From NCBI GenBank assembly GCA_951406725.2, contig OX597832.1, forward strand, positions 70,432,001-70,496,000: a stretch of 64,000 nucleotides of DNA, in the 5' to 3' direction. Below are positions 139 to 51,267 of the stretch, in pieces. Made by a program: the position numbers and the translations under genes. Below the pieces are notes generated by a model that was not told the origin of the DNA, ran no database searches, and was given only the letters and a program-made list of their open reading frames with translations. Position 1 is the first letter of the stretch. Every line of letters begins with the position of its first letter. The stretch comes from Octopus vulgaris. Its lineage: Eukaryota.

Positions 139-233
139 AACAAAATAAGCAGCAAGGTTATCCAGAGGTAATACATTACGATCGTTTCATGCAACTCCAT
201 TTAATTGAACAAAGCAAACATTACATCAATTTA
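139..233 (-). mobile_element. Degenerate terminal fragment of the hammerhead-bearing (TA)n-inserted repeat family
   Basis: The minus strand reads TTGATGT-AATG...GCAT-GAAA-CGATCG-TA and then GATAACCTTGCTGCTTATTTTG. This terminus matches those at 21131-21155, 37538-37562 and 51240-51265. Confidence 0.55.
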
Positions 234-324
234 CAATATAGAGCATATATATATATATATATATATATGTGTGTGTGTGTGTGTGTGTGTGTGTGTGTGT
301 GTGTGTGTGTGTGTGTGTGTGTGT

Positions 325-1319
325 GAGTTACAAATATTCTTGTCTGTGGAGACTTATTTTTGTAGTAAAAGGAAATAGTAGTCTTTTGGTTGCTATTTCT
401 AATATTTTCGGTATGTGGTTTAAGCAAATTGTTGCAAAAAACTCTTATTATTATAATTATATAAATCTTACCGAATATGGTCATTTTCCATACCGAAATA
501 CTACTAGGTGAAATTTTTTAATTTTATTAAATTAATTATATTTCACCCTATATCTGTAATAACTATATAGACATATATATATAAGCAGAGGCGCGGGCTT
601 CGAAATGTGGTAAGAAGCTTGTTTTCCAACCACATGGTTCCGTGTTCAGTCCCTCTGCGTAGCAACTTAGGCAAGTGTCTTCTACTATAGTACTATAGCC
701 TCGGGCCGACCAAAGCTTTGTGAGTGGATTTGGTAGACGGAAACGACATATATATATATATATATATATAATTTAATAATGAGGGTGATAAATTGAATAT
801 TAATTTAATTAACATCAGTTTAAAACCATTAGTCTAGCATATAGAAAAATCTGAAAATGCAGTATATATATATATATATATATATATATATATATATACA
901 GATAAAGGGTGAAATATAATTACTTTAACAAAATCAATAAATTTCACCTAGTAGTATTTTCGGTATGGAAAGGACCATATTCGGTATAAATTTATATAAT
1001 TATAATAAAGGGTTTTTGTGCAACAAGTTGCTTAAACCACATACCGAAAATATTAGAAATAGTAGTCAAAGGGCTACTATTACTATTACTGCAAAAATAA
1101 GTCCCCGCAAAAAACAGCCCTTGTAACTCATATATGGTAGACTGTGTGGTTCGTTGTTTTCCTTCCTTTTTTTACCATATATGAGTTACAAGGGCTGTTG
1201 TTTGCGGAGACTTACTTTTGTAGTAATTGTAATAGTAGCCCTTTGACTGCTATTTCTAATATTTTCGGTATGTGGTTTAAGCAACTTGTTGCACAAAAAC
1301 CCTTTATTATAATTATATA
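325..1319. repeat. Fold-back repeat with three arms (325-548, 905-1139, 1173-1319), possibly an inverted Penelope-type pseudo-LTR
   Basis: 993-1139 and 1173-1319 are near-perfect reverse complements around a 33-nt spacer. 325-548 is a more diverged reverse complement of 905-1130. All arms abut (TA)n or (TG)n. Confidence 0.75.
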
Positions 1320-1606
1320 TATATATATATATATATATATATATATATACACACATATATGTGTGTGTGTGAGTGTGTGCGCGCATGTGTATGTATATGT
1401 TTGTGTGTCTGCGTTTGTCCCCCACTTTTGCTTGACAAACGATGTTGATGTGTTTATGACCCTGTAACATAACGGTTCAGCAAGACAACCGATGGAAATT
1501 AGTACTAGACTTACAAAGAATAAGAACCTAGGGTCTGTTTGTCGACTAAAAAGGCGGTACTAGCATGGCCGCAGTCAATTGACTGAAACAAATAAAAGAA
1601 TAAAAG
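589..1606 (+). mobile_element. SINE family A, split copy (5' half 589-744, 3' half ~1400-1606) interrupted at its internal microsatellite
   Basis: Both halves align to the complete copy at 21578-21976: a tRNA-like head with TGTGGTAAG...GTTCAGTCC, and a tail GGCGGT..GCATGGCCGCAGTCAATTGACTGAAAC. Confidence 0.8.
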
Positions 1607-1717
1607 TATATGTATATGTATATATATGTGTATATATATATATATACATATATATATATATATATATATATATATATATACATCTATCTATCTATCTATC
1701 TATATATATATATATAG

Positions 1718-2108
1718 TGATCAAGAAAGTGAATAAGAATGAAATTTCTGTGTGCACAGTTTGTGACAGACCATGCCTTTCATTTGCTGGGCTCAAATCC
1801 CATTTGTGGACCCATGAAACGAACCTGCACCAACAATTCTGCCGACGTGTCTGTGCATAACTTTCTATGCCATGTATGCCGTAAGGTCTACAAATCCAAC
1901 GGAAGCCTCAAAAGACATTTGAAGATCCACAAAGATCAAATCTTGACTGCAGCTCTTCTGGTTGTCTTTTCAAAACATTGTTTGGTTTAAAAAGACCACA
2001 TTAGACGCTGATGGAGTTCAGGTGTACAGAAGATGGTGGGACTCGACATAAGGGGTTGCTAGTTTAGTCGTCGACGACTTGACCATCCAGCAAGTTGTAC
2101 TGGATACG
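1718..2108 (+). mobile_element. Frameshifted fragment with two C2H2 zinc fingers; probably the 3' end of a 5'-truncated RTE-like LINE
   Basis: CTVCDRPCLSFAGLKSHLWTH and CHVCRKVYKSNGSLKRHLKIH lie in two different frames with no TGEKP linker. A short 3' region with the palindrome GTCGTCGACGAC follows, and (TA)n flanks both sides. Confidence 0.55.
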
Positions 2109-47914: not shown

Positions 47915-48264
47915 CACAAATTCACACAGCTAAAGTTGTTACTGAATGGTACGAGGAACCTTATAGTGAAGTTGAACATCGTATCTGGTCACCACAGTCC
48001 CAGATCTCAATATTATGGAACATTTATGGTGCATTTTAGAAAAGCAAGTAAGGAGTCGATATCCTTCACTATTATCACTACAAGAACTGGAGACTGTTTT
48101 AGCTGAATAATGGACAAAAATTCCTTTGGAAACAATTCAAACTTTATAGGAGTCCATACCTCGTAGAATTCAAGCTGTAATTACTGCCAAAGGCGGTCCT
48201 ACCCAATATTAAAATAAATTTGTTTGAAATATTAAGGTGTTTCCTTTATTTTGTCCAACTCCTG
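47915..48264 (+). mobile_element. Tc1-like transposon 3' fragment
   Basis: WSPQS/PDLNIMEHLW...ESIPRRIQAVITAKGGPTQY* with stops, then a TIR-like end ATTTTGTCCAACTCCTG. Confidence 0.8.
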
Positions 48265-49859
48265 TGTGTATATGTGTATATGTGTATATATATATATATA
48301 TATATATATATATATATATATAGAGAGAGAGAGAGAGAGAGAGAGAGAGAGAAGGAGAGAGAGAGAGAGATGCTTGTAATTAGTGAGGGGAAAATATTTT
48401 AAAATTCCCATAGAACAAAGCTGACGTAGTTCTGTCTAATTATGAGGAAAGCACTAATTTCTCTCTCAGTTGCCGAAGCAGTTATATGAGGATCGCTAAA
48501 CAAGACTTTTTACTGGCAGTTGGGAGAAAATAGAGAATTGTTTAGAGTTCAATCACGTAGAGAGACTATTAAAGAATTTAGAGAAAAATGACGACCGATT
48601 GATTTAATGTGTGGACTACTAAAACAAACAAAAAAATACTCTCTACAAATAATTGCAGAGAGGAAAAAACAATTAATATTAATGCGTTACTAATCATATA
48701 TTACAATGATATTAAGAAAAGGGCAGACAACTAGAGAGAAATTCCGGTCGCATGATAACTTAGCAGCGTCGAGGATGAGAATGAAATACTTTTTTTAAAA
48801 GCATTCTCAATGAATCAACATTAATTCAATATCTGATAATTTTAACAGAGATATTAAAAAAGTTGAGCAGCTTAAAGTATAATACATATCTGTATGAAAA
48901 AGAAAAACTTCACGAATTTGCGTTTTTGCTGCAGCAAAGACAGACTCTGACTATTTCATAGCAACTAAATAAAGAGTTACAAGAAAAAATGAATAATGAA
49001 TTAAATGTTTAGATAAATTTCATTTGTGTTGAATATTAAATTATTTGAGATTATCAAACATTTTGCTTTTCAGAAATATATTTTCAGTTAGCCTGTTTGG
49101 TCTCCATATTGGAATGGCTTGGTCAATTTTGGTTGGACACCAACAAGATATATTTTTGCAGGACTTGGCTATGATGTCTTTGACGTTACCAGTTTGATAG
49201 TTTCCAGAGTGTTAGGATGGTTTACCAAAACAGGGCATAATACTTGACAGTAAGAAATGCAGCCAACTCTACCGTTAGAATGATTTTTCACACACAGATA
49301 TTTTTCCATGAGCGGATGGCCATTTCTGATCACACAAGTCTACGTAGAGGAGGGAACCGCTTCTGCTGGGATATGAACGATGCCATCTTATTACCGGTAA
49401 CAACTCCAGGAGTCCACACCTGAACAGAACACTTCAAAATCGTAAAACACCTTCCAACGCCTCAGTGCTTCAACAGATGACAGAAGTAAATTGTAAAATG
49501 CCTTCTAACATCGCATCAAATGTTGTCTTGTCAAAGGAACTCTATCCAATTCTTTATTTCTTTCGTACAGCTTAAAATTAATAGAAAAGATTTTAAACTG
49601 GTGTTCACTGTTTTCTGATAATATTTCTTCTATTCCTGTCCTCATAAACTCCACTTAATAACTTTACATTGTTTACTGTTGATTCCCGTTTTTTTAACAC
49701 ATTCCACAGTCTCCCAGAATTAACAATATATTTCAGTGAACTCGGACAATTTTTTTTTTAAATTTCGGTTTCATTTATGTTTGACATATGTTAAAAGTGT
49801 ATAAAATTATAATTTTGTTTATAATTCTAGAATTTATATAATTTTTCTTATAGTTTTAT

Positions 49860-50225
49860 TTTCATTCCTGTTGGATTTTGCTTATTTGTCCACGACAGCT
49901 TTTTTCAATTTGGAAGCAATCATTTCGTCTACCTCCATCTCGAAGATGAAGCAATAGTTCAATGAACTGAAAGAACGCGTTCTGGTAGCAGTGCAGGAAA
50001 TAACTCCTGAACGACTTCAAAAATGGGAAGAATAGATTTGAAATTTGCAGGGATTCGGACGGAGTACATATTAAAAATCTTCAACAAACTTTTTACGTGA
50101 GATATATAATTCTATTTGTTTTGGAACCATAATTATGTAATAAACATAAAATTCTGTCCGTTTTTTTTTTCCTTTTTTTGGCTTAATTTCATTGAAATAC
50201 ATAGTCAATTGAGGGACACCCAGTA
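49860..50225 (+). mobile_element. Very degenerate Tc1/mariner-superfamily 3' fragment
   Basis: NELKERVLVAVQEITPERLQ...RFEICRDSDGVHIKNL and an end GGGACACCCAG|TA. Confidence 0.45.
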
Positions 50226-50930
50226 TTAAGTCGTCATAGTTTAACACTAAAAGCTATACACTATAGAGACATATTCGTTGTTTATTGTTGTTTGATTTTC
50301 TTGTTTTGTTTTCACACAATTTCCCACTACATAGAATTATCCAGTGTATGCTATTATAAAGAAATATGTGTTCTGGTCCCATCTGGAATGAAAAGCGATT
50401 ATATGTGTATCTTGTCGTATCAGTCGTAACCTGGGGCTAACAACAATATCAAGAACTCTTTTAATTAATTGATTGAATATTTGTTTGCTTTAGCGAACGA
50501 GTGAACGTCTTCCCACGCAACTGGCATTAGAAGCCTCTTGAGTTCGCTGCCAAATCACTGTCCTGGAGACGGCACCATTTTGTTGCAAGTAACGGAGAAA
50601 ATGACGACGAGTGTAGAGAAGATTACGATGTTGATGGTGGTGATGATGATGATTGTTACAGGGATTACTGTGACAATGACGGTTGTGAAAATTTGTGTGT
50701 GTGTATAAATATATATATATATATATATATATTTGTGAAAATTTGTGTGTGTGTATATATATATATATATATATATATATATTGTATATATATATGTATA
50801 TATATGTATATATATATGTGTGTGTATGTGTGTGTTTGTGTGTATACATATATATGCACACACACACACATATATATACATATATATTTATATATGAGAA
50901 GAAAACAGATGAGCATTATATATATATATA

Positions 50931-51267
50931 TATAATCAAAATAAGCAACAAGGGTATCCGAGGTAGAGTAGTACAATTGTTTCATGCTAATGATAAAATC
51001 TGCAGACGGAGAGTGAACATACTACTATCATGTTATTAAAAATGAAATTAACCTCTCTGTCTATATATCTACCCTCTTTATGATGTTGGCAAATGAAATA
51101 GGGATAACAATATGCATTGTCCGTTTAATTGGAAAATTCTATATGTGGTAGAAGATTGCTCGACATTTTAAAACTGATGTAATACTTACAGTGTTTAATA
51201 AAATGAAGTAGCATGAAACCATTGTACTACTCTACCTTGGATATCTTTGTTGCTTATTTTTATTATA
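50931..51267. mobile_element. Inverted-repeat element of the hammerhead-bearing family (arms 50931-50989 and 51209-51267), degenerate core
   Basis: The arms are reverse complements. The + strand has CTGATGT (51174)...GCAT-GAAA-CCATTG-TA, while the left arm retains CAATTG. The terminus is shared with the 21130 and 37560 elements. Confidence 0.7.

Follow-up and report, generated by a model that had tools for sequence, protein, structure and literature searches.

The question raised by this locus is why several short segments of a 64,000-nucleotide stretch of Octopus vulgaris DNA (assembly GCA_951406725.2, contig OX597832.1, positions 70,432,001 to 70,496,000, hereafter the window) resemble hammerhead ribozymes whose helix III changes in sequence while staying a palindrome of 6 bp, and to what kind of element they belong. 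An earlier reading made from the letters of the window (the sequence-only reading) had listed five loci with the motif GAAA-[6-mer]-UA, the 6-mer being a palindrome in each. All five are indeed present, at positions 179 (−), 21167 (−), 36518 (−), 37519 (+), and 50974 (−), and carry the palindromes that it named. The best explanation overall, which we regard as highly likely, is that these are type I hammerhead-shaped RNAs located in the 3′ pseudo-long terminal repeats (pLTRs) of two lineages of Hydra-type Penelope-like elements (PLEs), with stem III likely pairing two copies for a predicted dimeric cleavage.

The bare pattern GAAA-palindrome-UA/UH occurs 12 times in the window, compared to 3.2 ± 1.7 (maximum 8) in 100 local dinucleotide shuffles; the count thus lies above that of shuffled sequence, but the enrichment is modest, and 7 of the 12 occurrences are outside the five named loci. 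It is the downstream terminus common to the copies, and not the bare pattern, that identifies the family. The terminus had been reported at four loci, where it is confirmed, and it is also found at a sixth copy at 51140–51235 (+), absent from the earlier list, in which the 6-mer is the non-palindromic CCAUUG and the core has decayed; it is, however, just one of two 3′ ends, the other lying ~100–125 nt further on. An intact CUGANGA core is found only at 21167 and 37519, i.e., in two of the six window copies. At 36518 all helices are there and the core reads CCGAAGA, while the copies at 179 and 50974 are 5′-truncated, starting inside or after stem II, without the 5′ core strand. The strands of helices I and II that had been quoted as compensatory do exist at 21167, 37519, and 36518, but the last of these belongs to a second lineage and is not a variant of the other four. 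With 33 lineage 1 copies, two of them from the window, as its basis, a covariance model returns the window's five lineage 1 loci as the top five of seven matches.

The genome (2.8 Gb in 227 contigs) was searched with patterns for the two lineages, the counts being exact matches and hence lower bounds. The lineage 1 pattern gives 3,524 matches and the lineage 2 pattern 1,869, against none in the reversed control of either, which bears out the high copy number proposed earlier. When copies are extended, the longer ones run into an open reading frame (ORF) encoding a reverse transcriptase (RT) followed by a C-terminal GIY-YIG endonuclease (EN). At L034, two same-strand lineage 1 matches 2,637 bp apart enclose RT and GIY-YIG fragments. 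With the EN of this locus as the query, 21 of the best 30 matches (query locus included) have the lineage 1 motif 0.46–1.43 kb downstream on the same strand, the rest having it on the opposite strand only (4) or not within the flank (5). Two 21167-type motifs, 4,199 bp apart, surround RT and EN at L081, where the pLTRs are 99% identical over 204 nt, and broken RT plus GIY-YIG ORFs can be read from their motifs at L081, L034, L088, and L089. For the 36518 family, the linked endonuclease is a second one (L124), and the RT identity between lineages 1 and 2 is 52%. At L188 and L190 the lineage 2 motif is present in both pLTRs around a long ORF; that of L190 is intact (946 aa) and lies between pLTRs 98.3% identical over 842 nt. 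Five copies of this young family are 96.7–99.6% identical over ~6 kb. Its members (L188, L189, L190, and L204–L207) are of the Hydra type, with long Asn-rich inserts between RT and EN, a 3′ untranslated region (UTR) of ~2.6 kb, and many near-identical EN matches genome-wide.

The window motifs are thus, with very little doubt as to their PLE identity, the 5′-truncated 3′ ends (pLTRs) of two lineages of Penelope-like retroelements rather than a separate element. The sequence-only reading had suggested that PLEs probably mobilise the ribozymes; the link to PLEs holds, whereas a separate element acting in trans is not supported, the motifs being the retroelements' own 3′ pLTR ends. The 5′ ends are ragged, the window copies keeping 109 to ~1,050 nt of the element, and a tblastn search finds no Hydra-type coding sequence left in any of the six. 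The GIY-YIG fragment of the window that had been offered as the partner, at 42839–43219 (+) (Pfam PF01541, E 4e-7), was rejected, as it looks CCHH-type and its similarity to the partner proteins is weak (tblastn E 2e-5 to 0.04); by eye, its Cys/His pattern is Neptune/Nematis/Naiad-like and not of the Hydra type. A weak GIY-YIG-like tblastn match (E 0.001) is also present at 28386–28276 (−).

As judged from ORF motifs read by eye, the elements very probably belong to the Hydra type. The L190 ORF contains DKT, YRDD, CxCx5C, a GIY-YIG-like motif, CxxC, and CxH, matching the description of the Hydra clade by Craig et al. 2021 (PMC8557442). Inspection of the translations of L190 and L078–L097 reveals a C-terminal EN with a CxCx5C linker and no CCHH, and with CxxC and CxH around the conserved E and N; DKT replaces DKG in L190 and L092. 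The protein relatives of the elements are mostly ~700 aa long, and the best match with a name among them is molluscan. We have also considered a Naiad origin, suggested by an "HHR_half_core" label on an octopus Naiad, and rejected it, given the C-terminal EN without CCHH; Naiad elements have an N-terminal GIY-YIG with CCHH and no canonical hammerhead. Two further families were encountered. One (L202:4800–4895 (−) and L173) is a third Hydra-type family with a fully paired stem II of 55 nt and CAUAUG in stem III, and the other (L042:4250–4320 (−)) is a Hydra family, Hydra-1_Obim-like by eye, with a U4C core, a short stem II, and a 9-nt stem III.

The 3′ ends were examined in 136 distinct lineage 1 copies. 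A microsatellite begins within 12 nt of the terminus in 73, and 51 have a tail, mostly of 101–125 nt, before the microsatellite; the others continue (5), carry partial tails (2), or are unclear (5). A (TA)3+ run is found within 20 nt in 70 of 78 tail-less copies, compared to 9.6% of random window positions, in agreement with the (TA)n targeting and the junctions with TA-rich repeats that had been proposed. The lineage 2 3′ end, ~390 nt downstream of the 36518 ribozyme, also lies in TA repeats. Of 24 inverted pairs (a count that includes one arm twice), 22 have a tail on one arm and not on the other, and none is tailed on both arms; the remaining two lack it on either arm by the strict test, but their tails look decayed or deleted. 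Two hairpins are conserved in 32 aligned tails with no two-sided change, and thus without support from covariation. One-sided tails of 30–40 bp have been described for Hydra-clade elements (PMC8557442), and in an element of the anole they have been tied to two RT start sites (PMC11167929). By analogy with this published PLE work, each inverted arm likely starts at a different RT site. The inserted copies span the predicted cut site, which means that the template was uncut or re-joined there.

Stem III had been claimed always to be a 6-bp palindrome. It is usually self-complementary, but not always: in addition to CCAUUG in the sixth window copy, CGAUUG and CAACUG occur genome-wide. The commonest 6-mer is self-complementary in eight of nine subfamilies (one with G·U), namely, CGAUCG in A, C, and C2, CGAUUG in B, and CAAUUG in B2, D, D2, and E, while in E2 CAAUUG and CAACUG are split 3:3. 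Lineage 2 has CAGCUG and the third family CAUAUG, such that the two central bases, which can be paired only between molecules, are AU, GC, or UA depending on the lineage. The predicted stem III homodimers of the self-complementary forms have energies of −5.8 to −11.1 kcal/mol, compared to +2.4 kcal/mol for the monomer hairpin; CGAUUG, through its G·U pairs, is at −5.8, CAACUG at −1.0, and CAAUCG at +0.3 kcal/mol. CGAUUG accounts for 796 of the 3,524 lineage 1 matches, and its mirror product of CpG decay, CAAUCG, is found 153 times genome-wide. This excess of the form giving G·U in the dimer over that giving A·C fits pairing at the RNA level, with a small number of events, and we attribute it to one or two master copies having carried CGAUUG. 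It is reasonably probable that a predicted dimeric cleavage is the reason for the symmetry of stem III.

A CUGANGA core lies 55–75 nt before GAAA, a spacing that was used as a filter, in 92 of the 136 lineage 1 copies, and 33 of these, picked to span the nine subfamilies and for an intact core, were aligned. The core is unchanged in all 33, as follows from this selection. RNAalifold predicts 17 pairs, 11 of them with two-sided changes. In the named structure of 30 pairs, 12 change on both sides, compared to 8.1 ± 1.3 in shuffles (2 of 500), and its covariation score of 0.275 exceeds both that of the shuffles (0.161; 0 of 500) and the highest obtained on sliding the structure (0.089); further pair types, in contrast, are no more numerous than in the shuffles (499 of 500). 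Stems I and II show two-sided changes in three of four pairs each, in related sequences, and one pair of the distal stem II hairpin varies among A-U, U-A, and C-G; pairing in the middle part of the stem II extension is weak in subfamilies D and E. Stems I and II and the distal hairpin thus covary across subfamilies, which is consistent with structural selection and upholds that part of the earlier proposal, with the qualification that the copies are related and the events few. The lineage 2 changes are two-sided in 3 of 19 predicted pairs, all of them between the young and older families and hence one event. At the 10.1–11.1 pair, the 92 lineage 1 copies have U·U (43), G-C (31), G·U (11), A-U (6), or A·C (1); the U·U mismatch at this position has been published for natural hammerheads (PMC3088659).

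Stem II spans 55–63, 85–100, and 55 nt in the three lineages and ~31 nt in the L042 family. Rfam gives no match at the gathering score in the four loci submitted to it, and on the window the best 150 of 330 matches are microsatellite-driven microRNA and small nucleolar RNA models below that score. The number of hammerheads in such genomes has probably been underestimated, because the long stem II escapes short-loop descriptors and Rfam. The long, covarying stem II extension of the three Hydra-type lineages could be a selected functional module that, for example, docks the element's protein or keeps the ribozyme switched off until two pLTRs pair, a tentative suggestion that we hold to be possible if doubtful. 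If true, the young intact family, together with a strict rule of one tail per insertion, would offer an accessible means of finding out why hammerheads are retained in PLEs and of showing that both RT start sites are used once per insertion. In the window, the single-molecule minimum free energy (MFE) folds of the copies at 21156–21250 (−) and 37441–37535 (+) have the 3′ strand of stem II paired to nucleotides near the cut site, such that GAAA is hidden; this modeled pairing is possibly an off state.

The mechanism that we propose draws in part on published PLE work. The element protein would nick AT-rich DNA, and reverse transcription would begin past the ribozyme, at either of two internal sites, and its early termination would give the 5′-truncated copies. 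Two copies likely pair through the self-complementary stem III, which would make the dimer the form in which the RNA is cut, and the ribozyme would probably trim tandem pLTR-ORF-pLTR transcripts to unit length, perhaps with help from a protein.

A number of observations weigh against this interpretation. The covariation counts represent few independent events, because the sequences come from related subfamilies. The change CGAUCG → CGAUUG → CAAUUG is also a path of CpG decay; an unrooted tree of 54 rows calculated without stem III, in which the CGAUUG subfamily has CGAUCG groups on either side and a CAAUUG group next to it, is unable to order the changes, all of which could stem from CpG decay. 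The non-palindromic CAACUG has 8 genome matches, including both pLTRs of L081; it has been copied at least 8 times, and therefore the palindrome is not strictly required. U4C, which reduces hammerhead activity in vitro (PMC3088659), occurs in several amplified lineage 2 subfamilies and in 17 of the 20 nearest copies of 36518, and no complete hammerhead results when the three full-length window copies are folded singly by MFE. The lineage 2 motif is within 1.5 kb of only 3 of 30 EN matches; in the young family it lies ~2.2 kb past the ORF, beyond that flank, and again upstream of the ORF. As to the Hydra assignment, the RWK position reads RWR in L188–L190 (the lineage 1 N-terminus was not recovered), the units measure 4.2 kb (L081) and 5.6 kb (L190), as opposed to the usual <3 kb of the Hydra clade, a general and non-diagnostic trait (PMC8557442), and none of the four element proteins has a match in Pfam. 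We use the name "Hydra-type" because of the RWR reading and the excess length.

In one alternative, the binding of a protein or the initiation of RT would be what preserves the structure, with cleavage being weak or dispensable, and most of the change in stem III would come from CpG decay and drift of a few master copies. CGAUCG, CGAUUG, and CAAUUG differ by CpG transitions only, the U4C and CAACUG variants have been amplified, and insertion of the anole PLE in vitro was unaffected by ribozyme mutants (PMC11167929). Such an alternative is somewhat unlikely, considering that the core is invariant in the 33 aligned copies (selected for it) and present in 51 of 77 distant relatives, and that CpG decay leaves CAGCUG, CAUAUG, and the 5:1 excess of G·U over A·C unexplained. 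The ribozyme might instead cleave as a monomer, the long stem II giving the stability missing from a two-pair stem III and the palindrome being a by-product of a minimal-loop hairpin. The length and stability of stem II speak for this possibility, as do the MFE folds of the young L190 and L189 copies, which are monomer hammerheads, and the 7–8-nt inner stem III segments of many relatives, which fold as hairpins. However, a hairpin needs no pairing of the two central bases, which are nevertheless self-complementary in three lineages, and single minimal PLE hammerheads did not cleave (PMC4209133), which makes monomeric cleavage quite improbable.

A separate non-coding ribozyme element (a retrozyme or a SINE-like element, SINE denoting a short interspersed nuclear element) mobilised in trans by PLEs would account for the lack of coding sequence in all six window copies and for the very common short copies, and non-LTR retrozymes derived from PLEs have been described (10.64898/2026.07.22.740005). 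Against it, the 5′ ends are ragged and the longer copies continue into EN and RT. The tandem non-coding arrays that extension of the copies might have revealed are not found in the window or, as arrays of short period, among the 100 genome matches listed, and the closest same-strand pairs examined are an ORF-flanking pair (L034) and two different subfamilies (L036). We consider such an element very improbable.

The type I hammerheads in the pLTRs of Hydra-type PLEs have close counterparts in the literature, where the kind of system itself is known. Elements of the Hydra clade, including Hydra-1_Obim of Octopus bimaculoides, are described in PMC8557442 as having, like those here, a single ORF with RT and then GIY-YIG, the DKT, CxCx5C, CxxC, and CxH motifs, insertion into (TA)n, a type I hammerhead near the 3′ end, inverted truncated arms with a tail on one end, and a basal U·U pair in stem II, given for Penelope-1_HM among others. 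The present elements differ by eye from Hydra-1_Obim in the protein start and the hammerhead, as well as in length (946 aa vs its 709 aa), and from the clade in their units of 4.2–5.6 kb with Asn-rich inserts. Stem II spans 55–100 nt instead of the 3–10-nt loops of the Hydra motifs listed there, stem III is an 8-nt self-complementary run without a loop as opposed to 9–10 nt, and the tail has ~100–125 nt compared to 30–40. Loops of ~30 nt are listed in the same source for stem II of two plant PLE-X elements, and the long stem II extension is thus not unprecedented. Four short lineage 1 motifs (three from stem III and the terminus) have no match in the supplement text of Craig et al., where line breaks in the FASTA could hide one.

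The metazoan PLE hammerheads of Cervera and de la Pena 2014 (PMC4209133) share the type I fold, the short palindromic helix III, the predicted dimer, the coexistence in one genome of many families that differ by compensatory changes, a predominance of solo truncated copies, and opposite-strand pairs 100–700 bp apart; they have a helix II of 6–8 bp with a conserved G10.1-C11.1, whereas the present elements have an extended stem II and mostly U·U or G-C at this pair. Poseidon of Anolis carolinensis (Frangieh et al. 2024, PMC11167929) likewise has AT-rich targets, two 3′ ends defining a tail, and inserts that continue past the cut site, but it is from a different clade, and in it hammerhead and ORF start overlap, whereas in L190 several hundred bases separate the hammerhead from the next ORF downstream. 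The non-LTR retrozymes mentioned above also have type I hammerheads related to PLE pLTRs, but form tandem non-coding arrays, unlike the dispersed, ORF-joined copies here. To the minimal and palindromic-helix-III hammerheads of metazoan PLEs also belongs the work of Lunse et al. 2017, treated in the review PMC6765202. A sense-strand type I hammerhead is present in 51 of 77 related loci taken from metagenome contigs (0 reversed, 1 antisense), the other 26 being perhaps truncated or of forms outside the descriptor. With the shortest stem II kept per core, it measures 10–25 nt in all 51; two have 6-nt stem III palindromes, one of them CAGCUG.

Whether the system had been catalogued in cephalopods was left undecided by the sequence-only reading. 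Palindromic stem III appears in PMC4209133, and Hydra hammerheads, (TA)n insertion, and an Octopus bimaculoides family in PMC8557442; dimer cleavage, the stem II U·U, and one-sided tails are already published as well. Distinctive here are the 55–100-nt stem II, the tail of ~100–125 nt, and the young intact family. The main text of PMC13282606 reports 31 recently active Penelope-like families in Octopus vulgaris without mention of ribozymes or Hydra. In the literature searched we found no description of the present families or of a long stem II in Hydra elements; the repeat library and supplements of PMC13282606, outside this comparison, may already contain them. The role of hammerheads in PLEs is treated as open in PMC8557442 and PMC11167929, and these families offer natural test material, with the stem III alleles CGAUCG, CGAUUG, CAAUUG, CAGCUG, CAUAUG, and the non-palindromic CAACUG, core variants (U4C and U·U at 10.1–11.1), and near-identical intact elements.

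The individual window copies are arranged as follows. The lineage 1, subfamily A copy at 137–245 (−), with TA-rich repeats on both sides, is a 5′-truncated 3′ end without CUGANGA, comprising the 3′ part of stem II, GAAA (188–185), CGAUCG (184–179), UA, and the short terminus. The truncated 3′ UTR/pLTR at 21127–21522 (−) belongs to subfamily E of lineage 1 and is 93–95% identical to L154, an RT- and EN-linked copy. It contains a complete type I hammerhead at 21156–21250 (−), with helix I UCGG/CCGA, the core CUGAUGA (21241–21235), a 58-nt stem II, GAAA, and CAAUUG (21172–21167), the predicted cut being after UA (21165). The lineage 2 copy, a 5′-truncated 3′ UTR/pLTR at 36124–37169 (−), is 92% identical to the EN-linked L124/L139 and ends in the TA repeats ~390 nt beyond its ribozyme. 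The latter, at 36512–36638 (−), consists of helix I AUCU/AGAU, the variant core CCGAAGA (36634–36628, U4C), a 100-nt stem II, GAAA, CAGCUG (36523–36518), and UA. Head to head with this copy lies a truncated 3′ UTR/pLTR of lineage 1, subfamily D, at 37166–37566 (+), which has an internal 134-bp duplication. Its complete type I hammerhead at 37441–37535 (+) has helix I UUAG/CUAA, the core CUGAAGA (37450–37456), a 58-nt stem II opening with U·U, GAAA, CAAUUG (37519–37524), and UA. The last insertion is an inverted one. Its short arm at 50932–50991 (−), of lineage 1, subfamily B/B2, retains only GAAA, CAAUUG (50979–50974), UA, and the short terminus, and its long arm at 50991–51352 (+) carries the decayed hammerhead at 51140–51235, with the core UAGAAGA and CCAUUG, followed by the terminus near 51265 and a ~90-nt tail ending in TA repeats.

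Elsewhere in the window, two copies of a motif at 28753–28810 (+) and 29823–29880 (+) have GAAA preceding CUGAAGA and are bracketed by a 6-bp inverted repeat. An uninterrupted frame of 654 codons at 11410–13374 (+), with a Gly-rich region and a FAM69/PIP49-like kinase domain, is probably a host gene. A broken long interspersed nuclear element (endonuclease and RT), a mariner transposase, a Helitron PIF1 helicase, and a second RT with zf-RVT are found at 2812–5901, 40745–41362, 53065–54397, and 59210–61162, respectively. Finally, a tRNA-like SINE head (box A/B-like, by eye) is located within TA repeats at 51418–51530 (+), ARAGORN finding no tRNA in the window.

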